In this document: positions 2,090 to 60,474 of the stretch, piece by piece | How the letters are laid out: each line of letters starts with the position of its first letter | Position numbering within the stretch: position 1 is the stretch's first letter | DNA from: Escherichia phage vB_EcoM_CE1 | Sequence record: ON229909.1 | Length of the DNA: 64,000 nt | Direction: 5' to 3' (one strand) | Made by a program: the position numbers and the translations under genes | The notes under the pieces: model-generated | Told to the model about the DNA's origin: nothing | What the model saw: the letters and a program-made list of their open reading frames with translations, nothing else | Database searches by the model: none

Positions 2090-2746
2090 TTATTTAGCCC
2101 TTCCTAATATTCTGGCCGCCTGAGCACATATTGATTCAAGGCGGTCATTACTTATATGATCATTTCTATACCAGTACATGGTTATTGTTCCAGCATAGAT
2201 ATTATCCAAATTGAAATATGGACAACTGTACATGTAATTTATTTCGGGAGTAGGCTTTTTAGTTGGTAAAAAAGCAAATTTTGAGTCGGAATAATAATGA
2301 CGTCCATTTAAATGAACTGCATATTCATCCATAGTTTTATCAACAGGATATCCTCCAAGTGATTTTTCACTTATTGTTGAAGGTAATTTTCCTTCATATG
2401 CTATAATATCAACAAAATAGTTTAAGTTTTTAGGGCGGAAAGAATACACCGCACTAAAGTCTGCCTCAGATGATATGTGAACTATCTGGAGTTGTTCCAG
2501 GGCGACAGATTCAAAGCGTGCATTTCTTTCCTTTTCAATAATTTCACTGTATGTTTCATACTTTGATTGCTTATAGTACTCAAAGAAACTATCTCCCCTA
2601 TACCAAACAATCGCCATCATAAATAAAAGAATTACGACAGCTACCCGGGAAGCAAGAACTTTCCCGGTAGCGTTATCTTTGAACAAGCGATCTAGAACAC
2701 CCAACAGAATATCAGAGGGCGAAAATGATATTCTAGGTGCTGCCAT
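2090..2746 (-). CDS. t: holin T
   Basis: 218 aa, MAAPRISFSPSDIL... with single TMD (VAVVILLFMMAIVW); matches T4 holin; downstream of gene 38. Confidence 0.95.
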   Translation of the reverse strand: MAAPRISFSPSDILLGVLDRLFKDNATGKVLASRVAVVILLFMMAIVWYRGDSFFEYYKQSKYETYSEIIEKERNARFESVALEQLQIVHISSEADFSAVYSFRPKNLNYFVDIIAYEGKLPSTISEKSLGGYPVDKTMDEYAVHLNGRHYYSDSKFAFLPTKKPTPEINYMYSCPYFNLDNIYAGTITMYWYRNDHISNDRLESICAQAARILGRAK

Positions 2747-2777
2747 AGACCCTCCTTTTAAGGATATTTATTCAAAA

Positions 2778-3572
2778 TTATACCCTTGGACCATATATTA
2801 CTCCAACATTTTGCCATGTTGGAGCTGATCCTATAACAGCATATCCGGCAGCGCCACCAGCTCCAACTTTTAGAACTTTACCGCCATCATACCAGGCATT
2901 TTGTCCATTTGCGCCAGCATCACCACCCTGGCCAGAGTGAGCATTACCATAATTATAACCACCTCCTGGGCCATCATAAGAAGCTGCGCCGCCGGAATAA
3001 CCTCCGCCTCCTCCTGGGCCAAATGGTCTTCCTCCACCACCACCAATATCTTGCCATTTTGCACCAGAGTGAGGACGATAAGCGATACCACCTCCACCTC
3101 CACCTCCACCACAAATTACTCCACCGTTATTAATTCTTAATCGTCCACCGATGTCATTTTGAATACAATGACCACCTTGTTGACCATTACCATCTCCGCC
3201 GGAATGAGTCCATCCACCTTGTCCACCTCTACCCCACATATGGACGCCGCCACCAATATTCAACTGAACATATTCATTAGGTGTATCTCCGTACATGAAG
3301 AATAAAGGAACGTCTCTAGAATATGATACCAAATTTCCGGTAATATTAAACACTATAGGTGCACTACCTGCCTCAAAACATCTATCTCGGAACCATTGGC
3401 CATTGAAGTTATGGTCTGCTCCAAGCGTGTGAATTATTTCAACAGATCGACCTATCATATTACTCATCCAGAACGGAATGCCCATTCTTAATCGTTGGGC
3501 CGCGCCACCCATCCAATTTTGTCCTGTATTAACTACTGCAGACGATCCTACCCACGGTCCTGTTACTGCCAT
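2778..3572 (-). CDS. 38: gp38 long tail fiber adhesin, T2-type glycine-rich
   Basis: 264 aa from ATG with GGAGG SD (track ORF begins 4 codons earlier); poly-Gly motifs (GGGGGGGG, GGGGG) typical of T2/T6-type gp38 adhesins. Confidence 0.9.
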
Positions 3573-3603: not shown

Positions 3604-6600
3604 TTATTTTAACAACGATTTAACTAATGCTTTAAGTTCTTCGATTTCTGATTTAAGTTCTGCAATTTCTGCAGTATGCTCATTGATTGCGGCTGTATTT
3701 AAACCAATTACACCGTTATAGTTCAAACGAAGTAAAGCTTCGCCATCAGGGTCACCTTCAACTAATTCTGGCAAAATAGCTTGAACTTCTTGAGCTATCA
3801 AACCGGCGTTAGGTTCCCATTTCTGATTGCCTTCTTCATCTAGGCCTCGCTTCTGCATATAAGTGTAACCGTTAATTTTAGAAAGCTTCTGAGAAGCATT
3901 TTCAAATTTAACGAGGTCTTTTTTAACGCGAATATCAGAACGGACATAAACATCACGGACAAACGTTGAATAGCTATCATTTGCCTGAACGAGATGCCCA
4001 TGAGAAACAATTGCTTTACCGGCTTCTGTCCAAAAAGCACCGTATGAATCCCATAACCCCTCATGTGCCAGACGTTGAGACCCCCATGACGCAATATGAA
4101 CACCATCGGCAAACATGTTAATACGACCATCACCACCATGAACTAATCCTGTATCATTATCACCAATAGCAAGACACGCGCCGCCCCATACAGGGTCACC
4201 ACCGCCAGCTGATAATCTTCCAGTTTTAACCATGTTAGGAACATACATAACTCCATTGTGGTGGAATTCATAGATAGCTTGTGGGTCATGGCCATTTTCC
4301 TGGTTACCTACACGAATAATACCTTGTGCCCAGTTATTAGGAATGCGTCGCATACCGAAATCAACACCAGATACGTATCCTTCATTCGTAATAACAGATT
4401 TTCCTTTAATAATAGGATAATAACTATCATTACCGACGTAGCCAAAATCCACAAATACGGGAGCTTCTTGACGCCATTGATTTCCCCAATCGCCAGCCTG
4501 GTGACTGGTCCAGACAGAGCCATTAATAAAAAGTCGGTCCCTATTAAAATTAAATGTTCCTTGACCTTGAGGAGAAAGCGCTATTTCGCCGTTATTTGTT
4601 ATGTATACACCGCCTTGTGTAATGTAACTGTAAAAACCTAGACCATTATCGCCGCCGCCTTTGCCTATATACCAATTATTTGTACCACCTACATCACTAC
4701 GGATGTGCGATGAAGCGCCCACGCCTGCAGTTAAAACAAGGGCATCATTTCCAGCAGATAAAGTCAACCTACCGGTCATTGTATCGCCTTCTTTCGAAAC
4801 ACGAGTCGCAATAGCATCACGAATATTTGTAGTATCACCAGCAGAAGTAAACGGTTTCCAGATATCAGACCAGATGTTACCATTGCGAGCAATAGTAGCT
4901 TCACCTCCGCCGACAGAAACGTTATCTGGGAAGTTAACAGTACCGTCTTGATTAAAACGAGACGTATGGCCTTGTGAACCATCTTCTTTCAGATGATGAA
5001 TAACGAATGTACCCGAATTAATTTCAGTACCTAAAGACCAAACGCATTTACCGTTTAAGAATTTCTGTTTAACAATAGGATAATATTTACTTACCGCGTC
5101 ATCATCAATTTCTTGGAAAACAGGAGCTGCTTGTGCATATTGAATATCGTAACCGCCTGCACCTGCACCATGTCCACCGAATTTAATATAGCCGTTCGCA
5201 GCGAACGTATTGTAACTTGATTGTAAATCTGGAATAGTAACTTTACCGGTATCTAAAGCCATACTAAACGGGCGAAGTGGACCGATATCGCCATGTTTAC
5301 CTTCACCGTAAGCAGTTGGAATAATATGAAGACTGCCTTCTGAACGTCTAAAAATAGCTCCATAATCTGCATTCCAAATGCGAAGACCATTTACAGCATT
5401 TGTCGCGATTTCACCGGCTGCGCTGATTGTACCGTCAAATGTAGCATTTTTTACTACTGTCAAGTTTTCATTAACAATCTGGGTGCCATTTATAACCGAT
5501 TCGACTTTACCTGCAGTTGTTCGTTGAATATAGCTCATCCAACTAGTTGCGTCAGAAATTTCCATGACATTTTTACGAGTACCACCTACCGTAGTAAAAG
5601 TGTCACCCCAAACTTTGAGCTCTATATTATCAACTGAACTATATCCTATAGTATTTCCTTTAAAAAGCACAGTTGAAGCATTATTTCTACCATCGATATT
5701 AACAGAACCACCAATAACGTCAATATTACCAGGAGTGACTAATAAACCGCCGTGAGTATTAATGTTTGTAGTACCCTTACCGCGGAAATAATGATGATAA
5801 TTACCGCCTTGGTAATATCCTAAAAGAGTCTGACCATCTCCAAACGCGTTATTATCGTGATATGTCACGACAGTAGCAAGAGCATAGTTTTCAGTCGGAG
5901 GAGTAGTTAAATCTGTTCCATTAGTAGAATATCCAGCTACAAATTTTCTTAGGCTAGTTGTTTCGCTAGGGCTAAATAAAAATGTTTTCGTTCCATTATT
6001 GACGCTGAAATAATATCCATCCTGATGCCATTTTAGCCCGGTATCATTATCGCCAAGAGAAATTGAAGCAGTCCCTAATTCAGAGTATCCTTTAGAACCA
6101 CCTGGAAGACCTACAGAAATAGAATGACCGGCTTTCAATCCACCGGCCCAGTTAAACGACCAAAGATAAGTGTCTAAGCCATCTCCGGAATACCAGGTTA
6201 TTCCGTCATTAACATTAACTTCGTGGAAAATACCTGCTCCTACAGCATTTCGCATAACACGGAGGTGGTTAATAGCCGTTTCGCCTTCTTCAAATGGAGT
6301 ATTATTTGCTAATGAAGATATATCATAATCGCCCGTCTTCTTCCCATTTGTAATAACTTTATTGGTATAAATTACCGGAGTTGATACAGATTTCCACCCA
6401 AAAACTTCTGGTGAAGAAAACAAACCATTTCCATTAAAAGCGAAAGTGCTTTCTGAACCAGCTTTGTAATCTTGAACTCTAATATTAAGAACTTGTGTAG
6501 TTAATCCATCATTAGCAGGAGAAAAAATGATTCCACGTTCACGGTCAGCTAAATCATGAAAACGAACATGTGCTGTACCTGAACTTTTTGTAATAAGTTC

Positions 6601-6927
6601 GCCACCATGGGTCATTATCTGACCCGCAGCAATAATATCACGAGTTACGCGAGCAATACCCTTGAGATTGAAATCGCCAATTTGAGTGAAGGTGCCATTT
6701 AAAGTATAATCACCAGTTTGATTATAATTTCCTATATGAATAACATTCCCGTCAATACTACCGCCCTTAGCAAAACCCAGATCAATAATATTTCCTTGGT
6801 CATCTTTAGTAAAAAGTACACGGTCTTTTAAGTTTATAGCCAATTCACCTTCGGCTAATACTGAAGCGGCAGGACGTGCTCCTGCAGTTTTGCTTCTTTT
6901 AAATTGTATTTGTTTTAAAGTAGCCAT
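3604..6927 (-). CDS. 37: gp37 long tail fiber distal subunit
   Basis: 1107 aa, N-terminus [13 protein letters not shown]... as in T-even gp37; position between 36 and 38. Confidence 0.9.
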
Positions 6928-6935
6928 AAGTCCTC

Positions 6936-7592
6936 TTAATAATAGCCGAAATCTTGAACAGAATCCTTAATAACAATTTGATCAAATCGTGGAACATGCG
7001 AGGGTTGAGATGCAGGATTCTGTGAAAAAAGGTTTGGCGCAGTTAAATTTCCTGTCATAGTATCTCCAGAGCGTAATACTCTAGAGTTTGCGTTTGCTGT
7101 AACAATATTTATTGCTCCATCAACATAATCTTTCCTTGTAAGGTCATAATTATTTACTGGTGATAATGAAGTTGCGCGTATTTGTGATGCTTCAATTACA
7201 CCCTTTGAGCTAATATCTCCATTTCGCGTGTTAATTACTACAGTTCTACCTGCTGTTCCTTGTGATGATTTAAAACCAATACCATACCAAGAAACAATAT
7301 CCATATTTGTAGTATCATACGTGGCATTATCACCAGGACCAGCAAAAATACCATTGTCACCTGACCCTGCACCAGGAACAGTCATTCCTTTATTAAAAAT
7401 TACTTTATTTAAATACGTACCACCATTAGCTTTAGAAACGAAATCGTTATCAGCAGCTTGTGGTTTATTATATTCTGAATATATTTTAAATGATTTATAG
7501 AGTACATCGTCACCGGCTGGATTCAATGGAAAATTTCCTTGATGCCAAATGACAGAGCCTCCAGTTGTTGAACCTACTTTTAAATCAGCCAT
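6936..7592 (-). CDS. 36: gp36 long tail fiber hinge connector
   Basis: 218 aa (T4 ~221); synteny. Confidence 0.9.
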   Translation of the reverse strand: MADLKVGSTTGGSVIWHQGNFPLNPAGDDVLYKSFKIYSEYNKPQAADNDFVSKANGGTYLNKVIFNKGMTVPGAGSGDNGIFAGPGDNATYDTTNMDIVSWYGIGFKSSQGTAGRTVVINTRNGDISSKGVIEASQIRATSLSPVNNYDLTRKDYVDGAINIVTANANSRVLRSGDTMTGNLTAPNLFSQNPASQPSHVPRFDQIVIKDSVQDFGYY

Positions 7593-17276: not shown

Positions 17277-18066
<790 letters not shown>

Positions 18067-18067
<1 letters not shown>

Positions 18068-18615
18068 TGAAACAATACCAATTTTTAATTAAAGATATCC
18101 TGGAAAACGGTTATGAAACCGATGACCGAACAGGCACAGGAACAATTGCTTTGTTCGGTACTAAATTACGTTGGGATTTAACTAAAGGTTTTCCTGCAGT
18201 AACGACTAAGAAGCTCGCCTGGAATGCATGTATTTCTGAGTTATTGTGGTTCTTATCAGGAAGTACTAACGTAAATGATTTGCGATTAATTCAACATAAT
18301 TCATTAATTCAAGGCAAAACAGTCTGGGATGAAAATTACGAAAATCAAGCAAAAGATTTAGGATATCATAGCGGTGAACTTGGTCCAATTTATGGAAAAC
18401 AATGGCGTGATTTTGGCGGTGTAGACCAAATTATAGAAGTTATTGATCGTATTAAAAAACTGCCGAATGATAGGCGTCAAATTGTTTCTGCATGGAATCC
18501 AGCTGAACTTAAGCAAATGGCATTACCGCCTTGTCACATGTTCTATCAGTTTAATGTGCGTAATGGCTATTTGGATTTGCAGTGGTATCAACGTTCTGTA
18601 GATGTTTTCTTGGGT
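18067..18615 (+). CDS. td: thymidylate synthase, exon 1
   Basis: 183 codons MKQYQFLIKDILENGYETDDRTGTGT...QRSVDVFLG; exon ends CTTGGGT as at the T4 td 5' splice site. Confidence 0.9.
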
Positions 18616-18877
18616 TAATTTAGGCCTGAGTATAAGGTGACTTATACTTGTAATCTATCTAAACGGGGAACCTCTCTAGTAGACAATCCCGTGCTAAATT
18701 GTAGGACTTTGGTTCTACATAAATGCCTAACGACTATCCCTTTAGGGAGTAGGGTCAAGTGACTCGAAACGATAGACAACTTGCTTTAGCAAGTTGGAGA
18801 TATAGTCTGCTCTGCATGGTGACATGCAGCTGGATATAATTCCGGGATAAGATTAACGACCTTATCTGAACATAATG
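18616..18877 (+). ncRNA. group I self-splicing intron in td, ORF-less
   Basis: 262 nt, begins TAATTTAGGCCTGAGTATAAGGTGACTTATACTTG and ends GATTAACGACCTTATCTGAACATAATG, matching the T4 td intron core; no ORF in the P6 loop. Confidence 0.85.
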
Positions 18878-19189
18878 CTTCCATTTAATATTGCATCATA
18901 TGCTGCGTTAGTTCATATTGTAGCTAAGATGTGTAATCTTATTCCAGGAGATTTGATATTTTCTGGTGGTAATACTCATATCTATATGAATCACGTAGAA
19001 CAGTGTAAAGAAATTTTACGTCGTGAACCTAAAGAGCTTTGTGAACTGGTAATAAGTGGTCTACCTTATAAATTCCGCTATCTTTCTACTAAAGAACAAT
19101 TAAAATATGTTCTTAAACTCAGGCCTAAAGATTTCGTTCTTAAAGGTTATGAATCACACCCTCCTATTAAAGGAAAAATGGCAGTGTAA
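18878..19189 (+). CDS. td: thymidylate synthase, exon 2
   Basis: 103 codons LPFNIASYAALVHIVAKMCNLIPGDLIFSGGNTHIYMNH...; exon1+exon2 = 286 aa as T4 TS. Confidence 0.9.
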   Translation, partial: LPFNIASYAALVHIVAKMCNLIPGDLIFSGGNTHIYMNHVEQCKEILRREPKELCELVISGLPYKFRYLSTKEQLKYVLKLRPKDFVLKGYESHPPIKGKMAV

Positions 19190-19756: not shown

Positions 19757-22011
19757 TTAATGTTATCAAAAGTAGTGGTGTTTCTCAGAGCTTTGACCCG
19801 CAAAAAATTATTAAAGTTTTATCTTGGGCAGCTGAAGGAACATCTGTAGATCCTTATGAATTATATGAAAATATTAAATCATATCTCCGTGATGGAATGA
19901 CCACTGATGACATTCAAACTATTGTAATTAAGGCTGCTGCGAATTCTATTTCAGTTGAAGAGCCTGATTACCAATATGTAGCTGCACGCTGTTTAATGTT
20001 TGCTCTTCGTAAACATGTGTACGGACAGTATGAGCCCCGTTCATTTATTGACCATATTTCTTACTGTGTAAATGAAGGTAAATACGATCCTGAATTGTTG
20101 TCAAAATATTCTGCAGAAGAAATTACATTTTTAGAATCAAAAATTAAGCACGAGCGGGATATGGAATTTACTTATTCCGGGGCGATGCAATTAAAAGAAA
20201 AATATCTCGTTAAAGATAAAACCACTGGTCAAATTTATGAAACTCCACAGTTTGCATTTATGACTATTGGAATGGCATTGCATCAAGATGAACCTGTTGA
20301 CAGATTAAAACATGTTATTCGTTTTTATGAAGCAGTATCTACTCGACAGATTTCATTGCCAACTCCTATTATGGCTGGATGTCGTACTCCGACTCGGCAA
20401 TTTAGTTCATGTGTTGTTATTGAGGCAGGTGATTCGCTGAAGTCTATCAATAAGGCTTCTGCTTCAATTGTTGAGTATATTTCTAAACGAGCTGGAATCG
20501 GCATTAACGTTGGTATGATTCGTGCCGAAGGTTCTAAGATTGGCACAGGTGAAGTGCGTCATACTGGCGTTATTCCTTTTTGGAAACATTTTCAGACTGC
20601 TGTTAAATCATGTTCACAGGGCGGAATTCGTGGCGGCGCTGCTACTGCTTATTATCCTATTTGGCATTTGGAAGTTGAAAATCTTCTCGTTTTGAAAAAT
20701 AACAAAGGTGTAGAAGAAAACCGTATCCGTCATATGGATTATGGCGTCCAGCTGAATGATTTGATGATGGAACGATTCGGAAAGAACGATTACATTACTT
20801 TGTTTAGTCCGCATGAAATGGGTGGCGAACTTTATTATTCTTATTTTAAAGACCAAGACCGTTTCCGTGAATTATACGAAGCGGCAGAAAAAGATCCTAA
20901 TATTCGTAAAAAGCGTATTAAAGCCCGTGAACTATTTGAATTGCTCATGACTGAACGCTCAGGAACAGCAAGGATTTATGTGCAGTTCATTGATAATACG
21001 AATAACTATACTCCGTTTATTCGTGAAAAGGCGCCTATTCGCCAGAGTAACTTGTGTTGTGAAATTGCTATTCCAACAAATGATGTGAATGGACCTGACG
21101 CTGAAGTGGGCCTCTGCACTCTTTCTGCCTTTGTTCTTGATAACTTCGATTGGCAAGACCAAGATAAAATTAATGAATTGGCAGAAGTTCAAGTTCGTGC
21201 TCTTGATAATCTGTTGGATTACCAAGGATATCCAGTTCCTGAAGCAGAAAAAGCTAAAAAGCGTCGAAACCTTGGCGTAGGTGTTACTAACTATGCAGCT
21301 TGGCTGGCAAGTAACTTTGCTTCTTATGAAGATGCTAACGATTTAACACATGAACTATTTGAGAGATTACAGTATGGGCTCATTAAAGCATCCATTAAGC
21401 TCGCCAAAGAAAAAGGACCTTGCGAATATTATTCAGACACTCGTTGGTCTCGAGGCGAATTACCTATCGACTGGTACAATAAAAAGATTGACCAAATCGC
21501 AGCTCCAAAATACGTTTGTGACTGGTCGGCGCTGCGGGAAGACCTTAAGCTCTTTGGCATCCGTAATAGCACATTATCAGCACTTATGCCATGTGAGTCA
21601 TCTTCCCAAGTTTCTAACAGTACAAACGGTATCGAGCCTCCACGTGGACCAGTCTCTGTTAAAGAGTCAAAAGAGGGTTCCTTTAATCAAGTCGTGCCCA
21701 ATATTGAACATAACATAGATCTATATGATTATACATGGAAATTAGCTAAGAAAGGTAATAAACCTTATCTTACGCAGGTAGCTATTATGTTGAAATGGGT
21801 GTGCCAATCTGCTTCTGCTAATACTTACTATGACCCGCAGATTTTTCCAAAAGGAAAGGTTCCAATGTCAATAATGATTGATGACATGCTATACGGATGG
21901 TATTATGGCATTAAAAATTTCTATTATCATAATACCCGTGATGGTTCTGGTACTGATGATTATGAAATAGAAACTCCAAAAGCTGAAGATTGTTCATCCT
22001 GTAAATTATGA
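19747..22011 (+). CDS. nrdA: aerobic ribonucleotide reductase large subunit
   Basis: 754 aa, same length as T4 NrdA. Confidence 0.97.
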   Translation: MQLINVIKSSGVSQSFDPQKIIKVLSWAAEGTSVDPYELYENIKSYLRDGMTTDDIQTIVIKAAANSISVEEPDYQYVAARCLMFALRKHVYGQYEPRSFIDHISYCVNEGKYDPELLSKYSAEEITFLESKIKHERDMEFTYSGAMQLKEKYLVKDKTTGQIYETPQFAFMTIGMALHQDEPVDRLKHVIRFYEAVSTRQISLPTPIMAGCRTPTRQFSSCVVIEAGDSLKSINKASASIVEYISKRAGIGINVGMIRAEGSKIGTGEVRHTGVIPFWKHFQTAVKSCSQGGIRGGAATAYYPIWHLEVENLLVLKNNKGVEENRIRHMDYGVQLNDLMMERFGKNDYITLFSPHEMGGELYYSYFKDQDRFRELYEAAEKDPNIRKKRIKARELFELLMTERSGTARIYVQFIDNTNNYTPFIREKAPIRQSNLCCEIAIPTNDVNGPDAEVGLCTLSAFVLDNFDWQDQDKINELAEVQVRALDNLLDYQGYPVPEAEKAKKRRNLGVGVTNYAAWLASNFASYEDANDLTHELFERLQYGLIKASIKLAKEKGPCEYYSDTRWSRGELPIDWYNKKIDQIAAPKYVCDWSALREDLKLFGIRNSTLSALMPCESSSQVSNSTNGIEPPRGPVSVKESKEGSFNQVVPNIEHNIDLYDYTWKLAKKGNKPYLTQVAIMLKWVCQSASANTYYDPQIFPKGKVPMSIMIDDMLYGWYYGIKNFYYHNTRDGSGTDDYEIETPKAEDCSSCKL

Positions 22012-22062
22012 TATAATTTGACTCATGGACGAGTCACCAACTATTAACTAAGTGGAAAATTT

Positions 22063-22738
22063 ATGAGCACAGTTTTTAATACAAATCCAGTTGATGTTTT
22101 AACAGAACCTATGTTCTTCGGTTCAGGTCTTGGAATTGCACGTTATGATATTCAACGACATAAGGTATTTGAAGAACTTACAGAGAAGTCCTTATCATTT
22201 TTCTGGCGTCCTGAAGAAGTAAACTTAATGATGGATGCTGCACAGTTTAATAAGCTTCCTCAGTATCAGCAAAATATTTTTACTAATAATCTGAAGTATC
22301 AATCACTTTTGGATAGCATTCAGGGTCGTGCGCCGTCTGCTGTACTTATGTCATTAATTTCAGACCCAAGCCTTGATACATGGGTTGCTACGTGGACTTT
22401 TAGTGAAACTATTCACAGCCGTTCATATACACATATCATGCGAAATCTTTATACTGATCCATCGAAGGTATTTGATGAGATTGTATTAGATGAAGCTATT
22501 ATGAAACGTGCTGAATCCATTGGGCGTTATTATGATGATGTTCTTATTAAAACCCGTGAATGGGAAAATGCTAAAGAATTTGTAGAACTAGCTAAAGAAT
22601 CTCCTGATGCTGATTTTCGTTTAAACCGAGCTATTAAACAAGAAGCCGAAGCTAAACGTGCTTTAATGAAATCTCTTTACCTCTGTTTGCACGTTATTAA
22701 TGCCTTAGAAGCTATTCGTTTTTATGTATCTTTTGCGT
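22063..22738 (+). CDS. nrdB: ribonucleotide reductase small subunit, exon 1
   Basis: ORF ends ...AIRFYVSFA; conserved R2 motif continues (C + TFNF...MEGNAKI) only after removing 304 nt. Confidence 0.85.
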
Positions 22739-23042
22739 AAAATGCGCCTTTAAACGGTAACGTTTATCGAAAACTCCTTTAATTGCTGGAAAGTCCTTTA
22801 TAGGAAAACTAGCAGCCAAGGTTTTGCTTGCACCTTTAATTAGTATAATATAAATGATTATACTTTTAAGAGGATGCACAATTGCAAAGCAAGGTTCAAC
22901 GACTAGTCTTCGGACGTAGGGTCAAGCGACTCGAAATGGGGAGAATCCCTCTGGGATTGTGATATAGTCTGGTCTGCATAGTAATATGTAGCAGTTCATA
23001 AGAGAACGGGTTGAGAATTAGCGAGCTCAATCGAACATAACG
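22739..23042 (+). ncRNA. group I intron in nrdB, ORF-less
   Basis: 304-nt interruption at the nrdB intron site; 5' exon ends in U with GCGU complementary to intronic GCGC (P1); intron ends ...CGAACATAACG (terminal G); splicing restores a TGT Cys codon and frame; no ORF over 60 codons. Confidence 0.65.
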
Positions 23043-23545
23043 GTACCTTTAACTTCCATAAGAACATGGAAATCATGGAAGGTAATGCCAAGATTATGAA
23101 GTTCATTGCACGTGATGAGCAGCTTCACCTTAAAGGCACCCAATATATTATTCGTCAACTTCAACTTGGCACTGATGGTGATGAATGGGTTAAAATTGCT
23201 CAAGAGTGTGAACAAGAAGCAGTTGATATTTTCATGGAAGTTAACCGCCAAGAAAAAGACTGGGCAGTTCATTTATTTAAAGATGGCGATGTTCCTGGAT
23301 TAAATACAAATAGCATGTGGAGCTTTATTGATTACTTAACTGTATCTCGTATGAAACAGTGTGGTCTTCCATGCCCAATTACCGATGCTCCGGTTAAACA
23401 CCCATATCCTTGGATTCGTGAATATCTTAATTCTGATAATGTTCAATCCGCGCCACAAGAAGTAGAACTGTCATCTTACCTTGTTGCACAGATTGATAAT
23501 GATGTTGATGATAAAGTTATGATGAGTTTTAAAAAATACTTTTAA
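23043..23545 (+). CDS. nrdB: ribonucleotide reductase small subunit, exon 2
   Basis: in frame with track ORF 23066..23545 (MEGNAKIMKFIARDEQLHL...); total about 392 aa. Confidence 0.8.
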
Positions 23546-25728: not shown

Positions 25729-26072
25729 GTAATTTTACAGCTGGATTGCTATTACTTGTAATAGCATTTGGCGGAACATCTATTATTTTAAAAAATAAGG
25801 TAGAAAGATTAGAAACATCGGTTACTGAAATTACAAAAACGGCCAATGAAAACGCCTTAGCATTAAATAATTTGCGAATTCAGTATAATTATATTGATGC
25901 GATGAATAATAAAAATCGTGAGGCAATTGCTGCTATTGAGCGTGAAAATGAAAAACTGCGCAAAGACGCAAAGAAGGCGGATGTGGTGGTTCATAAGCCA
26001 GGATTGGTTGAAAAACAAATCAACAACTCCTTCAACAAGTTCGCAGAAGACATCCAGGACCTTTCTAAATGA
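25719..26072 (+). CDS. pseT.3: i-spanin (Rz-like)
   Basis: 117 aa, N-terminal TMD (TAGLLLLVIAFGGTSIIL) then coiled-coil region; overlaps alc stop. Confidence 0.8.
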   Translation: MHVSNFTAGLLLLVIAFGGTSIILKNKVERLETSVTEITKTANENALALNNLRIQYNYIDAMNNKNREAIAAIERENEKLRKDAKKADVVVHKPGLVEKQINNSFNKFAEDIQDLSK

Positions 26073-26368
26073 TTAAACTATCAGCAGTAATATTATCTAT
26101 TGGTCTTCTAGTTGGTTGTTCGACAAAGCCTCTAGAAGTAAAGAAAGAAACAGTTCATCCTAATTGGCCTGTACAAATAAAGTCATATGATGAAGCTAAA
26201 CTATCTTGGCAAGTTAAAGTTATTGATGGTAAAGCTTGGGTCGGTATGCCATTTGAAGATTCCCAGGAATTTCGCATTTGGCTTAATGATGTAAAACGAT
26301 ATGTACATGATCAGAAAACTATGATATGTTATTATCGTCAAGAGTTAAAAGAGGATAAATGCAAATGA
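26069..26368 (+). CDS. pseT.2: o-spanin lipoprotein (Rz1-like)
   Basis: 99 aa, signal peptide with lipobox LLVGC; ATGA overlap with i-spanin. Confidence 0.8.
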   Translation: MIKLSAVILSIGLLVGCSTKPLEVKKETVHPNWPVQIKSYDEAKLSWQVKVIDGKAWVGMPFEDSQEFRIWLNDVKRYVHDQKTMICYYRQELKEDKCK

Positions 26369-26591
26369 TTTCATGGCATCAATTTGAACATCTCAAAGGA
26401 TTGATTTATGAATCCGAGATGGCTGCAATGATTTATGGACGCCAGATTCAACGGTTAGAATCTTTACCTCCAACTAATGATGTTTTATTAGCTCAATCAC
26501 GTGCTAATCTCAAAAATGAATATCAAAATAAGTGGGGTAAAGCATCTAAAGACCTGCATGATTATATTCAATCATTGGTTGAGAAAAATAA

Positions 26592-26595
<4 letters not shown>
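26359..26595 (+). CDS. hypothetical protein
   Basis: 78-aa ORF in pseT cluster. Confidence 0.5.
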
Positions 26596-27798
<1,203 letters not shown>

Positions 27799-27799
<1 letters not shown>

Positions 27800-27996
27800 T
27801 GGCTTTGCATCATGAAACTTGGGCTATTGTTATTGTAAATAGCGGTTTAGTTGGTACTAGTAATGGGCAATTTTGTGTATTCACTAGTGAAATTAGAGCT
27901 TGGGAGGAATGTCTTAAATTAAGAGAAAAGAATCCTGATGTTGAACTAACAGTAAAGAAAACTAAACTGCCTTTACCATGGAAAACTTATGAATAA
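27799..27996 (+). CDS. hypothetical protein
   Basis: 65-aa ORF between pseT and cd. Confidence 0.45.
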
Positions 27997-28189
27997 CTTA
28001 GAAAAGATTTATCGTCTTTGCGATAAGATTGAAAAAGAAAAGAAATATCTATTTTGTCTATGGCCTATTGTTGATGGAAGAGTAGGCTTAGATGTTCTTG
28101 ATTATGAAACAGAAGACAAAGTAGATGGTTCAATTTTTGATAACGCTTTGGATGTTATTGATTGGCTTGAAGAAAATTATGTGAGGTAA
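27989..28189 (+). CDS. hypothetical protein
   Basis: 66-aa ORF. Confidence 0.45.
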   Translation: MNNLEKIYRLCDKIEKEKKYLFCLWPIVDGRVGLDVLDYETEDKVDGSIFDNALDVIDWLEENYVR

Positions 28190-28191
28190 AT

Positions 28192-28467
28192 ATGTTTCCG
28201 ACTTACTCTAAAATCGTAGAAGTAGTGTTTAGCCAAATTATCGCTAATAACATGTTTGAAAAGCTTGATAATGCAGCTGAACTTCGAATCCACGCTCAAG
28301 TGACTCATGTATTGAACGCTTTGCTTCCAGACCAAGTGGATTCTATTGCAATTACGCTGTATCCAGGTTCCGCGCATATCATTGTCGTATTCGGTCTTGA
28401 TGCTGAGCTAGTCATCAAAGGCGATATTCGCTTTGAATCACAGACATCAGAATTCAAAGCAATTTAA
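28192..28467 (+). CDS. hypothetical protein
   Basis: 91-aa ORF. Confidence 0.5.
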   Translation: MFPTYSKIVEVVFSQIIANNMFEKLDNAAELRIHAQVTHVLNALLPDQVDSIAITLYPGSAHIIVVFGLDAELVIKGDIRFESQTSEFKAI

Positions 28468-28469
28468 TT

Positions 28470-28499
28470 GTTTACAACATGGTAGAGTTGTGATATTAT
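28470..28499 (+). promoter_or_regulatory. early-type promoter
   Basis: GTTTAC, 18 nt, TATTAT; flanking inverted repeat GGTAGAG/CTCTACC. Confidence 0.4.
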
Positions 28500-28529
28500 A
28501 GCTCTACCAAAACAAATGAGGAAATAGAA

Positions 28530-28766
28530 ATGCTAAGTGAAAAACCAATTACTGTTAAAGAATTCCAAGAAAAAGTTAAACTATTTGCTCAGGAATTGGT
28601 AAATAAGGTTTCTGAACGATTTCCAGAAACATCGGTTCGTGTTATTACCGAAACTCCTCGTTCAGTATTAGTAATTGTGAATCCAGGTGATGGTGACCAA
28701 ATAACACATCTCAAATTGGATTTTGATGGATTAGTTGAAGCACAAAGGGTGTATGGCGTACTATGA
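28530..28766 (+). CDS. hypothetical protein
   Basis: 78-aa ORF with GAGGAAA SD. Confidence 0.5.
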   Translation: MLSEKPITVKEFQEKVKLFAQELVNKVSERFPETSVRVITETPRSVLVIVNPGDGDQITHLKLDFDGLVEAQRVYGVL

Positions 28767-29101
28767 TGAATTTAACTGATATAATTGATAATTGTCTTGA
28801 AAATGATACTGGTGATCATAGAGCGCTTGACTCTGAAACAGCAAAGTTCATTAGAATAACTTTAATGAATGATACTCTAGTGAATAGTATTCATCCTTCT
28901 GTGTATGATGCTATTATTGTGACGAAGTATCCAGTTGAGCTTCACAAAAAGATGACTGGTGCAATTTTTATTGATAAGAAAAACCGCTTTAAAGATGGGC
29001 AGAATATAATTAGTTCTGTTATTAAAAGTATAACTAAACTTCGTCACGAAATTTATCGTGTTGAAACTACTAAATCTACTTATCTGGTGATTATGAAATG
29101 A
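28763..29101 (+). CDS. hypothetical protein
   Basis: 112-aa ORF, overlaps neighbours by 4 nt. Confidence 0.5.
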   Translation: MMNLTDIIDNCLENDTGDHRALDSETAKFIRITLMNDTLVNSIHPSVYDAIIVTKYPVELHKKMTGAIFIDKKNRFKDGQNIISSVIKSITKLRHEIYRVETTKSTYLVIMK

Positions 29102-29679
29102 AAGCGAGTACAGTACTTCAAATTGCATATTTAGTATCACAAGAATCAAAATGTTGCTCCTGGAAGGTAGGAGCAGTAATTGAAAAGAATGGACGTATTA
29201 TTTCTACTGGGTATAATGGTTCGCCTGCAGGTGGTGTGAATTGCTGTGATTATGCTGCTGAGCAAGGTTGGTTGCTGAATAAGCCTAAACATACTATCAT
29301 TCAAGGCCATAAGCCTGAATTCGTATCATTTGATTTAACTGATCGTTTTGTCTTGGCGAAAGAACACCGTAGTGCTCACTCTGAATGGTCGTCTAAAAAT
29401 GAAATTCATGCTGAACTAAATGCGATTTTGTTTGCTGCGCGAAATGGTTCTTCAATTGAAGGTGCTACTATGTATGTAACACTTTCTCCTTGCCCAGATT
29501 GTGCAAAAGCGATAGCTCAATCTGGAATTAAAAAGTTGGTTTATTGCGAAACATACGATAAAAATAAACCTGGCTGGGATGATATTCTGCGAAATGCGGG
29601 TATTGAAGTGTTTAATGTTCCTAAGAAAAACTTAAATAAGTTAAATTGGGAAAATATCAACGAATTCTGTGGTGAATAA
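29098..29679 (+). CDS. cd: dCMP deaminase
   Basis: 193 aa; zinc-binding motifs HAELNA and SPCPDCAKAI; matches T4 Cd. Confidence 0.95.
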   Translation: MKASTVLQIAYLVSQESKCCSWKVGAVIEKNGRIISTGYNGSPAGGVNCCDYAAEQGWLLNKPKHTIIQGHKPEFVSFDLTDRFVLAKEHRSAHSEWSSKNEIHAELNAILFAARNGSSIEGATMYVTLSPCPDCAKAIAQSGIKKLVYCETYDKNKPGWDDILRNAGIEVFNVPKKNLNKLNWENINEFCGE

Positions 29680-29915
29680 TGAAATTTCGTTTGGTACAGC
29701 TCACAGCAATTAGTTCTTATTCTAACGAGAACATTTCATTTGCTGTAGAGTATAAGAAATATTTTTTCTCTAAATGGAAGCAGTATTATAAGTCAGAATG
29801 GGTTTGTATTGATAGACCGTATAGTTGGAAATCTGATTTAGAAAAATGCCAAAAATTGCTTTCCACTCTTAAAGAACGTGGAACAACCCATATTAAAACT
29901 GTGATAGGTAAATAA
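29679..29915 (+). CDS. hypothetical protein
   Basis: 78-aa ORF. Confidence 0.5.
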   Translation: MKFRLVQLTAISSYSNENISFAVEYKKYFFSKWKQYYKSEWVCIDRPYSWKSDLEKCQKLLSTLKERGTTHIKTVIGK

Positions 29916-30224
29916 ATGAAACTGACGACTGAGCAAAAAGTAGCAATTCGTGAAATTTTGAAAACTAAATTGTCCATGGGTATTTCAAACGTGGTTTTTG
30001 AAAAGTCTGATGGTACTATTCGTACTATGAAAGGCACTCGTGATGCAGACTTTATGCCAACCATGCAAACTGGTAAATTGACTGAATCTACTCGGAAAGA
30101 ATCTACTGATATGATTCCGATATTTGATGTTGAACTCGGTGCATGGCGAGGTTTTTCTATTGACAAATTGATTTCCGTTAATGGCATGAAAGTTGAGCAT
30201 TTGCTTCAATTTATTGGTAAATAA
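29916..30224 (+). CDS. hypothetical protein
   Basis: 102-aa ORF. Confidence 0.5.
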   Translation: MKLTTEQKVAIREILKTKLSMGISNVVFEKSDGTIRTMKGTRDADFMPTMQTGKLTESTRKESTDMIPIFDVELGAWRGFSIDKLISVNGMKVEHLLQFIGK

Positions 30225-30225
30225 A

Positions 30226-30250
30226 TGCTTTAAGAATTATTTGTTATTAT
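30226..30250 (+). promoter_or_regulatory. putative MotA-dependent middle promoter for gene 31
   Basis: TGCTTTA MotA-box-like element, 12 nt, TATTAT. Confidence 0.35.
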
Positions 30251-30280
30251 TAATTCATCTGTTAACAAAAAGGAAAAACG

Positions 30281-30616
30281 ATGTCTGAAGTACAACAGCT
30301 ACCAATTCGTGCTGTCGGTGAATATGTTATTTTGGTTTCTGAACCTGCACAAGCCGGTGATGAAGAAGTTACAGAATCAGGACTTATTATCGGTAAACGT
30401 GTCCAAGGTGAAGTTCCTGAACTGTGTGTAATTCACTCTGTTGGTCCTGATGTTCCTGAAGGTTTCTGCGAAGTTGGTGATTTGACTTCTCTGCCAGTTG
30501 GTCAAATTCGAAACGTTCCGCATCCTTTTGTAGCTCTGGGTCTTAAGCAGCCAAAAGAAATTAAACAAAAATTCGTAACATGTCATTATAAAGCTATTCC
30601 ATGTCTTTATAAGTGA
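30281..30616 (+). CDS. 31: gp31 GroES-like co-chaperonin
   Basis: 111 aa [22 protein letters not shown]...; matches T4 gp31. Confidence 0.95.
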
Positions 30617-30763
30617 TATAAATAATAATATGAATTGGGTGTCGGAATAATAAGTTAACCGAACAATTCTACGTGGTAGTCTACAACTGAGAGATCTGTC
30701 GAAAGAAGATGAAATTCAGAAGAACGTGACTACCGAGTTTTAATCTCTAACGAGAATTTTTAA

Positions 30764-31012
30764 ATGATTAAACAATTACAACACGCTCTTGAACTGCAAC
30801 GAAACGCATGGAATAATGGTCACGAAAACTATGGCGCATCTATTGATGTTGAAGCCGAAGCTCTTGAAATCCTGCGTTATTTCAAACATCTGAATCCTGC
30901 TCAAACTGCATTAGCTGCTGAGCTCCAGGAAAAAGATGAACTTAAATATGCTAAGCCTCTGGCTTCTGCTGCACGAAAAGCAGTTCGTCACTTTGTGGTA
31001 ACACTGAAGTAA
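30764..31012 (+). CDS. rIII: rIII lysis inhibition accessory protein
   Basis: 82 aa, position after gene 31 as in T4. Confidence 0.8.
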   Translation: MIKQLQHALELQRNAWNNGHENYGASIDVEAEALEILRYFKHLNPAQTALAAELQEKDELKYAKPLASAARKAVRHFVVTLK

Positions 31013-31132
31013 GTATGATGACGGGTTTATGGTTATCCTGGTCGTTAAATATCCAAAAACCTATGTTCCCCTTGAGGGCTTGCGCAGGCAATGCCAATAA
31101 GTCCTGCATTTTCATTTAAAAGAGAATTTATA

Positions 31133-31309
31133 ATGGCAAAACAAGCTAAAGCAAAGAAAGCAGTTGAAAAGAAAGTTGGTGATTCTAAACGCGCTGGTTA
31201 CAAGCGTGGGTCGAACTCTCGTATCAATCAAACTGTTGAGAAGATCATGCGCCGAGCACGTGCGGTTCTTCGAGATGATGCTTCTCGTTTTGGTAAGCAG
31301 AAAGCATAA
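31133..31309 (+). CDS. small basic hypothetical protein
   Basis: 58 aa from ATG MAKQAKAKKAVEKK...; part of track ORF 31091..31309. Confidence 0.4.
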   Translation: MAKQAKAKKAVEKKVGDSKRAGYKRGSNSRINQTVEKIMRRARAVLRDDASRFGKQKA

Positions 31310-31312
31310 GTT

Positions 31313-31340
31313 GAGGACTCCTTCGGGAGTCCTTTTTTAT
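31313..31340 (+). terminator. rho-independent terminator
   Basis: GAGGACUCC-UUCG-GGAGUCC hairpin followed by T-run. Confidence 0.6.
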
Positions 31341-31362
31341 TTTCCAAAGATTGCACAAAGTT

Positions 31363-31395
31363 GTTTACAGTATGGTTCCTTTGTGATAGTATTAT
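31363..31395 (+). promoter_or_regulatory. early-type promoter
   Basis: GTTTAC, 17-18 nt, TAGTAT/TATTAT. Confidence 0.45.
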
Positions 31396-31419
31396 CTTAC
31401 ACAAACAAAGGAGAATAAA

Positions 31420-31752
31420 ATGAAAACGATTAATCTGAACGCCACAGTTAAAACTAAATGCTTCAATGGTAAATATGATGAAACTATGTGGTTCTTAATG
31501 GCAGTTGAAGGTGATATTATTGAAGTAGAAACAACAGAAGGTATGGGAACAGATTTCACCTTTACAATCCAAGTTCATAATTTCTTTACTGGTTGGATTT
31601 ATGAACTGAATACGGTAATCGTTGGAAAAATTGAACAAAATGAATTGGGTGAATGGTATTATGTTACAGCTCGCCAACGTGCCGAACGCTTAATTGAGAA
31701 GATGAAAAAAGTTGGCAAACTTGACATGAAGCATTGGAAATTAGTAAAATAA
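31420..31752 (+). CDS. hypothetical protein
   Basis: 110-aa ORF with GGAGAA SD. Confidence 0.55.
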   Translation: MKTINLNATVKTKCFNGKYDETMWFLMAVEGDIIEVETTEGMGTDFTFTIQVHNFFTGWIYELNTVIVGKIEQNELGEWYYVTARQRAERLIEKMKKVGKLDMKHWKLVK

Positions 31753-31754
31753 TT

Positions 31755-31783
31755 GTTTACTTTGGTACAGGATATGATATTAT
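31755..31783 (+). promoter_or_regulatory. early-type promoter
   Basis: GTTTAC, 17 nt, TATTAT. Confidence 0.45.
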
Positions 31784-31820
31784 ATACCTGTACCGCAATT
31801 AAACATCTCGGAGAATAAAA

Positions 31821-32186
31821 ATGAACTACATTAACTTTGAACGTAAATATGTTTCTAACGGTATTGCAGGTTCTATTGATACTATCTGCCTTTGGAAACA
31901 TCAAAATGGATCAGTATGCGAAATTGAACAGTATATGACTCCTAACTACGTTTATATGCGATTTGAAAATGGCATCACGGTTTCAATCACGAAAGAAGGT
32001 TCTTCTTTTAAAATCGCATTAGATGATGATTTCCGTCAACGCGATTTAGGTACTCATCCTTGTTGGAATGGCGTCAATCGTAAGCTTCTGGTTAAAACTT
32101 GGATTCGTCATATTCTGAGTAACAGAGCTAAACCTGAGCATCTTGAAGCAATCTTTGATGTAGTTCTTAACGAATTTGATATTTAA
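31821..32186 (+). CDS. hypothetical protein
   Basis: 121-aa ORF with GGAGAA SD. Confidence 0.55.
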   Translation: MNYINFERKYVSNGIAGSIDTICLWKHQNGSVCEIEQYMTPNYVYMRFENGITVSITKEGSSFKIALDDDFRQRDLGTHPCWNGVNRKLLVKTWIRHILSNRAKPEHLEAIFDVVLNEFDI

Positions 32187-32226
32187 AATAAAACAGGGGC
32201 TTCGGCCCCTTACTGAGGAAAATACT

Positions 32227-32514
32227 ATGTTTATGACTACTTATTTTGATACCCGCAAAAATTTCTGTGAAGTGGTTTTCTCTAAGGCGCCTAAAGACCT
32301 TCCTGCTCATTTGCAGCCTACCAGTGAATCGATTAAAAACTACGTTAATGTAGTATGTCCTTTAGAGTTCCGTACTGTAAATGGACGTGATACTCTAGCA
32401 ATCATTAAACTCAATCGTGAAATTGACATTGACCCTTCAATCGCGCGCGAAATTAATATTTCTGATATTGGCGGCGGTAATGTTAAATCGCACGGTTTTC
32501 AGATGAGGTTCTAA
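32227..32514 (+). CDS. hypothetical protein
   Basis: 95 aa from ATG preceded by GAGGAAAA (track ORF starts earlier). Confidence 0.5.
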   Translation: MFMTTYFDTRKNFCEVVFSKAPKDLPAHLQPTSESIKNYVNVVCPLEFRTVNGRDTLAIIKLNREIDIDPSIAREINISDIGGGNVKSHGFQMRF

Positions 32515-32711
32515 TGAAATTCTTTTTGGGTCAAACTGTTGAATTAAAGGGAGTTGGTATACCTGGATTAATTTCTAAGGTTCTACCTCCATTTAAATGG
32601 AGTGGTATTCAAATAAAAGAGGCTTATATTGTTTCCTGGGTAGATGGAAATGAAGACCTTCGTATGGGTGATGAATTATCTCCTATTTACGGATTAAAGG
32701 AATTAGTATGA
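32514..32711 (+). CDS. hypothetical protein
   Basis: 65-aa ORF. Confidence 0.45.
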   Translation: MKFFLGQTVELKGVGIPGLISKVLPPFKWSGIQIKEAYIVSWVDGNEDLRMGDELSPIYGLKELV

Positions 32712-32914
32712 ATATAATTAATAAGATTTTTGGAATTCAGTACATTAAGGTCACATATAAAGTAACGTATAAAGGTCCGTATACCGATGAACATGAAGAG
32801 CCACAAGTTCAGTCTATTATATTAGAAAAGGACCCTAACTGGCCAGTTGAATTTCGTCTTCCTTGCTATGGTCATTGGGCTGATGTTGAAATTATAAGCA
32901 TTGAAAATGTCTGA
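32708..32914 (+). CDS. hypothetical protein
   Basis: 68-aa ORF. Confidence 0.45.
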   Translation: MNIINKIFGIQYIKVTYKVTYKGPYTDEHEEPQVQSIILEKDPNWPVEFRLPCYGHWADVEIISIENV

Positions 32915-33365
32915 GCTAGAGATAAGAAGCAATTTTAGATGGCCATCATGCGCATTAAGTAATTTCGCTCAATGGCCTTTCGTTATGGATGGTATTCAAT
33001 TTGGAGGTCTCGAAGGATTCCTCCAAGGGTGTAAGGTGAAAAATGTTGAACAACAAAGACGTATATTTGGGTTATCCGGGCTTGCCGCTCAACAAGCTGG
33101 AAGGTCTTATGCTAGAGCTCAGGATCGTGGCACGTTGTTCTGGCTTGGAGTTCCGTTTTCAAGATACTCCCCGGCGTGGAAAGAATTATACACAAATGCA
33201 TATTTTGAAGCAGCGATCCAAAACAGGGGTTTTCGTGATGCATTACAAGCCTCGAAAGGAAAAGTTTTGAAGCACAGCATGGCTAGTGGTCTAACAAAAG
33301 ATGATACAATACTAACCGAAGCTGAATTTATTGATGTGTTAAACCTATTAAGAGACTCTCTATGA
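32901..33365 (+). CDS. conserved hypothetical protein (T4 30.3-like)
   Basis: 154-aa ORF in the gene 30 distal cluster. Confidence 0.55.
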   Translation: MKMSELEIRSNFRWPSCALSNFAQWPFVMDGIQFGGLEGFLQGCKVKNVEQQRRIFGLSGLAAQQAGRSYARAQDRGTLFWLGVPFSRYSPAWKELYTNAYFEAAIQNRGFRDALQASKGKVLKHSMASGLTKDDTILTEAEFIDVLNLLRDSL

Positions 33366-34201
33366 AGCCAACTATTTTGACTGATATTGATGGTGTATGT
33401 TTAAGCTGGCAATCAGGCCTTCCTTATTTTGCTCAGAAATATAATCTTCCATTAGAACATATTTTAAAAATGATCCAAGATGAGAAATTTATTTCTCCGG
33501 GTAAACTCTTTAATTGTGACGAAGAACTTGGCGTCAAGTTAATTGAAAAATACAATCGTTCAGATTTTATTCGTTACTTGTCTCCGTATAAAGATGCCCT
33601 GTGTGTAATTAACAAATTAAAAGAAGATTATAATTTTGTAGCTGTTACAGCATTAGGTGATTCTATTGACGCTCTGTTGAATCGTCAATTTAATTTGAAT
33701 GCTCTTTTTCCTGGTGCCTTCTCAGAAGTAATGATGTGTGGTCATGATTCTTCAAAAGAAGAGTTGTTCAAAAAGGCAAAAGAGAAATATAACGTAATTT
33801 GTTATATTGACGATCTCGCTCACCACTGCGACCACGCGAGTGAAATATTAAATGTTCCGGTTTATTGGATGGCTCGAGGAGAGCGTGACAATATTCCAAA
33901 AACTGCGCAGCGAGTTTATACATGGAATGATGTAGAGAATAAGCTTTTTCCATCGAAGGAAAATAAAGAAAGTTTTGATCGTGAAAAAGCTATAAAAGAT
34001 GTAATTGAAAAGATGATTAAAAACGATTCTTTTCCTTGGAACACTACCTGGAGAACTCCTGGATTTAATCCTTATAATCATCTATATCATCCATATCAGA
34101 CGCATCCGTTTCAGACATGGAACTATATTAAACCCGGCGGTATAGAGTATTTGTATAATAGACCTACTTGTGGTGATAATATTTTCCAAGGAGCATTCTA
34201 A
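33362..34201 (+). CDS. conserved hypothetical protein (HAD-like, T4 30.2-like)
   Basis: 279 aa, N-terminal DIDGV motif typical of HAD hydrolases. Confidence 0.55.
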   Translation: MKPTILTDIDGVCLSWQSGLPYFAQKYNLPLEHILKMIQDEKFISPGKLFNCDEELGVKLIEKYNRSDFIRYLSPYKDALCVINKLKEDYNFVAVTALGDSIDALLNRQFNLNALFPGAFSEVMMCGHDSSKEELFKKAKEKYNVICYIDDLAHHCDHASEILNVPVYWMARGERDNIPKTAQRVYTWNDVENKLFPSKENKESFDREKAIKDVIEKMIKNDSFPWNTTWRTPGFNPYNHLYHPYQTHPFQTWNYIKPGGIEYLYNRPTCGDNIFQGAF

Positions 34202-59825: not shown

Positions 59826-60431
59826 TCATTCTAGTAAATCCCAAAGATCTACGCTATTTCTTTTTGACTTTTCTCGGTTAGATTCCCAAGTGATTATTTC
59901 TAAATTTTTTACGCTTGCTATAATTTCCGGCGGAATTAAATTATCAAATCCATATTTGATAGATACTTTATGATCGAGTTGGTAAGCACCTTCTACACCG
60001 CACACTCCTATTTTATCAGCATTCGGCCATTTTGACCAAATTTTTCTTATTTTAGCTGACTTAGTTATAGAATGAACTCTACTAGCATATAATGCAAACT
60101 CTTTTCTTTTACCAGTCCATCGAGGGTGTTTATCGCCTCTTTGCCATGGTCTGCTTATTCCGGATTGAACTTCCGAATTTTTAATAGCAACTTGTTTAAT
60201 GCTACATTTTCTACATGCATGTGTAGGTGTTCTATTTAAAAGCTGAATGCTTCTACTAAATTTAATACCGCACAAATCACATTTAGCGTCAACTATTTTA
60301 TTACTATTCTTTGGCATTAATTCTATTGGAACAGATACTGTATCATGATATGATACTTTATATCCTAGAATTGTCGACCACATTTTTGAATGATTTCTTG
60401 GTTTTATTGTAACAAACTTAGAAATAATCAC
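59826..60431 (-). CDS. putative HNH-family endonuclease with zinc ribbon, inserted between genes 18 and 19
   Basis: track ORF 59826..60470 (214 aa); likely start is GTG at 60431 after GAGGAAA; CDLCG...CRKC zinc-ribbon-like motif and LDHKVSIKYGFDN...NLEIITWESNREK HNH-like motif; no gene here in T4. Confidence 0.6.
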   Translation of the reverse strand: MIISKFVTIKPRNHSKMWSTILGYKVSYHDTVSVPIELMPKNSNKIVDAKCDLCGIKFSRSIQLLNRTPTHACRKCSIKQVAIKNSEVQSGISRPWQRGDKHPRWTGKRKEFALYASRVHSITKSAKIRKIWSKWPNADKIGVCGVEGAYQLDHKVSIKYGFDNLIPPEIIASVKNLEIITWESNREKSKRNSVDLWDLLE

Positions 60432-60448
60432 TTGTTTCCTCGAGAATA

Positions 60449-60462: not shown

Positions 60463-60474
60463 ACAATCAATCAA

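Follow-up and report, generated by a model that had tools for sequence, protein, structure and literature searches.

The thymidylate synthase gene (td) in the window, that is, in the whole 64-kb stretch of phage DNA analysed here, contains a T-even td group I intron that has most likely (probability about 0.85) lost its homing-endonuclease cassette by deletion, as indicated by comparison with related introns. According to the alignments, a single deletion of 754–755 nt in the P6a loop would have taken out the I-TevI promoter/operator, the ribosome-binding-site hairpin and nearly the entire I-TevI reading frame. The features concerned are as follows.

18067–18615, plus strand: td exon 1, 183 codons, 3' end CTTGGGT (translation compared with T4 Td)
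18616–18877, plus strand: ORF-less td group I intron, 262 nt (RF00028 match; 258 of 262 positions equal to the T4 core)
18878–19189, plus strand: td exon 2, 103 codons and stop (spliced product compared with T4 Td and PDB 1TIS)
18610–18629, plus strand: P1, exon UUGGGU (18610–18615) with the internal guide GCCUGA (18624–18629), 6/6 pairs
18700–18719, plus strand: P6a, an 8-bp stem (18700–18707 with 18712–18719) and loop UUUG (18708–18711), 8/8 pairs (alignments to T4, SQ17 and LH2)
18709–18730, plus strand: last 22 nt of the former I-TevI frame, ..T TGG TTC TAC ATA AAT GCC TAA (alignment to the I-TevI ORFs of T4, SQ17 and LH2)
18732–18807, plus strand: 3' half of the core, P7 (18732–18736 with 18803–18807) around P7.1, P7.2, the P3 3' strand and P8 (pair counts and Rfam alignment)
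18812–18866, plus strand: peripheral 3' helices P9 (GUGA loop), P9.1 and P9.2, with 7/7, 3/3 and 6/6 pairs
22739–23042, plus strand: nrdB group I intron, 304 nt, without the I-TevIII gene (RF00028, 68.6 bits over 22722–22991; splice sites inferred from ORF restoration)

The Rfam group I intron model RF00028, whose gathering score is 50, matches positions 18606–18829 with 73.8 bits (E = 7.4e-17) over its full length, 1–253. The td intron begins with TAATTTAGGCC at 18616 and ends with ...ACATAATG at 18877, its last base, G18877, being the terminal guanosine (omega-G). Exon 2 opens with CTT CCA TTT (Leu-Pro-Phe) at 18878, and the insertion lies between Gly183 and Leu184, after codon 183, which is the site used in T4. 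As in T4, the TAA at 18616–18618 is an in-frame stop for exon 1 in unspliced RNA, and the I-TevI cleavage motif CAACG is retained in exon 1 (18589–18593, positions −27 to −23). A sequence-only reading made earlier had described a 262-nt interruption with the T4 td core almost base for base and with T4-like exon boundaries (CUUGGGU before the intron, Leu-Pro-Phe codons after it); its coordinates proved exact, and the boundaries are borne out by the sequence at 18615/18878. Homology to the td core, which that reading had held open to refutation by alignment, is confirmed by a single-gap alignment to T4. Judged on every character that can be read from the DNA, the stretch 18616–18877 is a group I intron of the T4 td lineage; we take it to be of the T4 type, subgroup IA2. 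The homing-endonuclease ORF that a mobile group I intron encodes was not found within it. A promoter/terminator scan of the intron gave no signal, the sole terminator-like match being the P8 hairpin in minus-strand orientation, and a repeat scan of the intron gave nothing meaningful.

The helices were placed from an RNAalifold consensus of ten td introns, in which the nested helices were recovered, together with the T4 td secondary structure. Helices P1, P2, P3, P4, P6, P6a, P7, P7.1, P7.2, P8, P9, P9.1 and P9.2 are fully paired, with 6/6 pairs in P3, 5/5 in P4, 2/2 in P6, 5/5 in P7 and 8/8 in P8; P5, whose placement is a guess, has two of three pairs. At the 5' splice site, U18615 forms a U·G pair with G18624. 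Within the 3' half of the core, the P3 3' strand occupies 18771–18776 and P8 18777–18796, while P7.1 and P7.2 have 3/3 and 5/5 pairs. The P6a hairpin, GUAGGAC-UUUG-GUUCUAC with one more U-A pair, has a calculated energy of −9.3 kcal/mol when taken alone. The four differences from T4 fall at intron position 6, in the P1 loop (L1), at position 129, in the P7.1 loop (L7.1), at position 174, where P8 gains an extra closing pair, and at position 232, where a G·U pair in P9.2 becomes A-U; all four are predicted to be neutral or stabilising. The minimum free energy of the region (z-score −4.4) beats that of all 200 shuffles. Among relatives we observed modest covariation: an A-U pair in P8 becomes U-A in BYEP01, N2 and SEA1, two wobble pairs in P1 of SQ17 become Watson-Crick pairs by one change on each strand, and a C-G pair in P9 becomes U·G.

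Aligned to the T4 td intron (AF158101), the window intron shows one clean 755-nt gap that spans the I-TevI cassette; against introns of the SQ17/LH2 type the gap is 754 nt. The retained 262 nt differ from T4 at four positions, with 92 of 93 bases identical in the 5' part and 166 of 169 in the 3' part. By count in its record the T4 intron is 1017 nt long, the length given in the literature being 1016 nt. In T4 intron coordinates I-TevI occupies 133–870 and positions 94–848 are gone from the window, so that the loss covers 716 of the 738 ORF nucleotides and the 39 nt that precede the start codon; the T4 cassette thus removed comprises the I-TevI promoter/operator, the ribosome-binding-site hairpin and the ORF. 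The 22 terminal ORF nucleotides would have been kept for their part in the ribozyme, where they supply the 3' strand of both P6a and P6 and run on into P7, in line with the known overlap of the I-TevI 3' end with the ribozyme core, where it adds to P6a, P6 and P7 (Edgell, Chalamcharla and Belfort, PMC3073962). In this sense the deletion endpoints mark which ORF nucleotides the ribozyme cannot spare.

Relative to a parent of the LH2 type, the junction lies between 18708 and 18709. Microhomology at the junction amounts to 0–1 nt in the comparisons with T4 and LH2, and no remnant of the ORF is found outside the core. Repeat-mediated deletion, considered for td on account of an apparent TTG microhomology, was dropped after this comparison. 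The td intron contains no ORF longer than 45 aa, the largest being 41 and 45 aa, and tblastn with I-TevI as the query against the whole 64-kb window found no match (best E 0.35). The absence of the I-TevI ORF, claimed from the sequence alone, is therefore upheld by the gap, by the internal ORFs and by the tblastn search. The ORF site had been given as the P6 loop: a peripheral loop it is, but the endpoints mapped in the T4 alignment, which had been suggested for that purpose, place it more exactly in the loop of P6a.

The td (18400–19100) and nrdB (22500–23300) stretches of the window are 100% identical to those of the Tequatrovirus vB_vPM_PD112 (MH837626 / NC_054928; PD112 below). Over its whole length the window is a 98–99% identical mosaic relative to PD112, in which blocks with zero differences, those of td and nrdB included, alternate with others that show up to 177 differences per kb, and with indels (for example in 4000–7000, 20000–21000, 26000–34000 and 54000–55000); among the divergent stretches are tail-fibre genes. 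A search of 50,697 phage records with the 44-nt td junction returned PD112 (two records) and 215Ecol030PP, and on inspection BYEP01 carries the same junction with a 1-nt insertion beside P6a. No exact match to the junction was found in IMG/VR viral contigs, JGI metagenome contigs or GTDB genome contigs, and outside the window it is known only from these three deposited phages.

The td intron sequence itself is present in 260 of the 50,697 records, 187 of which keep at least 80% of the I-TevI region. Shortened introns account for about 36 of the 260 (~14%, about one in seven) and go back to at least five distinct events. The 320-nt form (17 records) has kept 12 nt of leader on the 5' side and 58 nt from the end of the ORF; the 445–446-nt form has lost the middle of the ORF between CATTTTAAA repeats; and a 315-nt form occurs in Klebsiella phage EI. 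A second ORF-less family, of 254 and 250 nt, is represented by N2, HMD-9, CJY920, GRNsp7 and SEA1. The N2 intron (254 nt, segment positions 1001–1254) is 93% identical to the window intron and that of SEA1 (250 nt, segment positions 1001–1250) 87.5%, and P6a is here a 4-bp hairpin, GUUC-UUUU-GAAC in N2 and GUUC-GAAA-GAAC in SEA1.

The direction of the change was judged from these relatives, since with a junction microhomology of 0–1 nt a comparison of two sequences alone cannot separate deletion from insertion. The ORF-containing intron of phage LH2 equals the sequence retained in the window at all compared bases (90/90 on the 5' side and 166/166 on the 3' side) and shares with it each of the four departures from T4, which makes deletion the likelier direction. 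The introns of T4, SQ17 and LH2 each encode a full 245-aa I-TevI, and their I-TevI regions differ by 5–13%, so that the ORF-containing state looks older than the split between LH2 and PD112. We nevertheless considered that the td intron might be ancestrally ORF-less, dating from before I-TevI entered the P6a loop, on the view that group I introns had no ORF before they were invaded (PMC3073962). The lack of any ORF-derived sequence beyond core nucleotides would fit such an origin, as would the near absence of junction microhomology. The N2 and SEA1 introns, more divergent and with a different small P6a, point the same way, and their family could be an older or ancestral ORF-less lineage. The GGAC-UUUG-GUUC junction, moreover, occurs on three cores, LH2-like in PD112, intermediate in 215Ecol030PP and with an N2-like 3' half joined to the PD112-type P6a in BYEP01; it therefore either dates back further than a very recent deletion would or was carried across by recombination. 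For the window intron we regard an ancestral state as unlikely, because, besides the match to LH2 and the apparent age of the I-TevI ORFs, the retained sequence is 98.5% identical to T4, its P6a stem is base for base the one that encodes the I-TevI C-terminus, and some introns plainly have deletions in the same loop that left ORF remnants behind; these forms, of 320 and 445 nt, with their ORF fragments, indicate that deletions in the P6a loop recur. Loss of the cassette by deletion, a post-homing degeneration state in the words of the sequence-only reading, is thus supported both by the ORF-containing LH2 intron and by the independent partial deletions in relatives, and the homing cycle is expected to pass through endonuclease degeneration (PMC5009752).

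A collapsed assembly or an engineered deletion strain would also give one clean gap, but an artefact of assembly or laboratory work is extremely improbable: the identical junction occurs in the phages PD112, 215Ecol030PP (Poland) and BYEP01 (a Chinese pig farm), which were isolated and sequenced independently, the exons and the single-base differences in the intron are not the same among the three, and the window exons are 6–8% diverged from T4, so that no T4 laboratory construct is involved. Very improbable, too, is a splicing-dead intron in a td gene that decays as a split pseudogene and is tolerated because the host supplies thymidylate. T4 is known to grow without td on thyA+ hosts, and GenBank lists the two td exons as separate CDSs, as such decay would have it. 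However, all core helices are intact, the four differences from T4 would not weaken them, and both exons are uninterrupted. The joined segments 18067–18615 and 18878–19189 form a frame of 286 codons, the product of which is identical to T4 Td at 275 of 286 positions (96%) and aligns from 1–286 to 1–286 of PDB 1TIS, the solved T4 enzyme, gap-free at the junction. The td exons have dN/dS values of 0.06–0.12 at dS ~0.3, and this covers PD112 against BYEP01, both of which carry the ORF-less intron. The td exons are intact and under purifying selection, and values this low mean that the gene has been kept functional, for which splicing is needed. Engineered td introns with a shortened P6a also self-splice (PMC2729099). 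By its structure and by analogy with these constructs, the window td intron very probably still self-splices.

Splicing of the window intron would then proceed by guanosine-initiated two-step transesterification, the ligated exons would yield normal thymidylate synthase, and ribosomes on unspliced td RNA would halt at the TAA that opens the intron. Without I-TevI the intron would have no drive and could not home unaided; a tdDelta1-3 donor, which lacks I-TevI, homes at about 1%, compared with 33% for the intact intron (PMC1865063). Three circumstances may favour its persistence. The td gene would stay intact only on precise excision of the intron. The intron splits the I-TevI recognition site, so that I-TevI of a co-infecting phage could presumably not cut this allele, and immunity of the window td allele to the enzyme may be inferred by analogy. 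Finally, loss of the ORF would end the conflict between translation of I-TevI and folding of the intron, which is already known (PMC2988022). The intron could be passed on by ordinary phage recombination or could provide the template for repair if I-TevI came from another phage; the T4 nrdB intron homes in trans, driven by mobE (PMC2790892), and trans-mobilisation of the window intron by supplied I-TevI could be similar in kind. An intron moving without its own endonuclease, as the sequence-only reading had it, finds indirect support: the junction occurs on three intron-core/exon backgrounds, which demonstrates exchange by recombination, though not homing driven by an endonuclease.

The second intron of the window, that of nrdB, has likewise lost its endonuclease gene. 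Relative to RB3 it has a 785-nt deletion between 7-nt direct repeats, ACAATTG, by which I-TevIII was lost, while the I-TevIII upstream leader (a TATAAT-like box and GAGG) is kept. Repeat-mediated deletion would thus account for the nrdB intron (ACAATTG) and for the 445-nt td form (CATTTTAAA). The nrdB junction is common to BYEP01, CJY920, SP21535 and DCP80, three of which have a shortened td intron, and this suggests a linked endonuclease-free haplotype. Because the td junction is found on three cores and the ORF-less nrdB junction almost only together with a shortened td intron, one may ask whether the two endonuclease-free introns form a linked haplotype of about 5 kb that spreads among T-even phages by recombination, the advantage being protection of both genes from cutting by I-TevI and I-TevIII with no endonucleases to carry at a cost. 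We put this forward tentatively, as a rather doubtful proposal; if true, the endonuclease-free td and nrdB introns would not be dead ends.

The surroundings are equally poor in endonuclease genes. The spacing between nrdA and nrdB is only 51 nt (22012–22062) and lacks the free-standing endonuclease gene mobE that T4 has there. The PD112 record lists no endonuclease from frd to nrdB and no homing endonuclease anywhere in the stretch that corresponds to the window, and tblastn of the window with I-TevI and the free-standing LH2 paralog as queries gave E values above 0.3. The window is an endonuclease-poor genome segment. The minus strand has an ORF of up to 214 aa at 59826–60470, flanked by the genes for tail sheath and tail tube and annotated as hypothetical in PD112; a C-terminal stretch of it, DHKVSIKYGFDN...WESNREK, resembles an HNH nuclease motif, with no Pfam match at E 0.01, which makes the ORF a possible free-standing homing endonuclease gene.

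In T4, frd and td overlap directly; in the window they are separated by a 68-aa ORF without a Pfam family (17861–18067). This ORF is also found in LH2, BYEP01 and 101112UKE3-1, and a different ORF of about 350 nt occupies the place in 215Ecol030PP and N2, so that the frd-td gap is a variable slot directly 5' of the intron-bearing gene. In N2 (segment positions 1824–2254) and LH2 (segment positions 2539–3270), a free-standing GIY-YIG gene occupies the nrdA.2–nrdA interval, some 0.6 kb downstream of td and on the opposite strand, and the LH2 copy is 46% identical to I-TevI; a gene of this type is absent from the window. With its GIY-YIG gene and ORF-less 254-nt td intron, N2 is a candidate for a collaborative-homing arrangement.

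The intron cores are 98–100% identical between phages whose td exons stand at dS ~0.3. A pattern of this kind, with cores closer than exons, is said to have been described by Sandegren and Sjoberg in 2004 as the recent transfer of old introns. In MH837626 / NC_054928 the exons of td (18067–19189) and nrdB (22063–23545) are each entered as a separate CDS with the introns unannotated, and in MH837626 td exon 2 appears as a 'hypothetical protein' and nrdB exon 1 as 'partial'; in most other shortened-intron phages the exons are likewise separate CDSs and the introns unannotated. Our literature search found no paper describing natural ORF-less td introns and nothing relevant on PD112 or on I-TevI in Tequatrovirus genomes. 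According to a 2010 review, each of the three T-even introns carries a gene for its own endonuclease (PMC2993671); of the td-intron-bearing records now available, ~14% are shortened, through several independent events. An ORF-less td intron is a predicted late stage of the homing cycle of a selfish intron, of which dozens of examples are already in GenBank, and as such it is not surprising. Its value is that the window locus provides a clean natural case of the endonuclease-lost stage in the best-studied mobile intron system. The shortened-intron loci, most of which appear in the records merely as a pair of thymidylate synthase fragments, call for annotation as a single spliced gene, and they offer natural material on whether an empty intron protects from the endonuclease or is mobilised in trans.

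Compared with known systems, the window td intron shares with the I-TevI-bearing T4 td intron the gene, the insertion site, the helices P1 to P9.2 and the in-frame TAA at the intron start, but it lacks the 755-nt cassette and its P6a is closed by a 4-nt loop. The td intron of Escherichia phage LH2 (OQ378934) has an equal core at every compared base but keeps the 245-aa I-TevI, and its exons match those of the window at 516 of 549 positions (exon 1) and 223 of 312 (exon 2). ORF-less introns served by a neighbouring free-standing endonuclease are known from T3/T7-like phages, cyanophage psbA and T4 mobE/nrdB (PMC3984707, PMC2790892). As in these collaborative or trans-homing systems, a conserved phage gene of the window is interrupted by an intron that encodes no endonuclease; unlike them, no I-TevI-like or other annotated endonuclease flanks its td, and there is no mobE between nrdA and nrdB. 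The engineered tdDelta1-3 and short-P6a constructs have the I-TevI region removed from the P6a loop in the same way, and they self-splice in vitro (PMC2729099), although they are laboratory deletions in a T4 background. The T4 nrdB intron, in which the gene for the defunct I-TevIII is disabled by deletion while the ribozyme is functional (Eddy and Gold 1991, cited in PMC1865063 and PMC2790892), is, like the window td intron, a natural T-even group I intron with a deletion-disabled endonuclease gene and the textbook case of endonuclease degeneration; T4, however, keeps a truncated ORF, whereas the window td ORF is gone down to the nucleotides that overlap the core, and in the window nrdB intron, too, the loss goes further than in T4. 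Two of these precedents come closest to the window td intron: the nrdB intron of T4, in which I-TevIII is truncated, and the td constructs from which the ORF was deleted in the laboratory.
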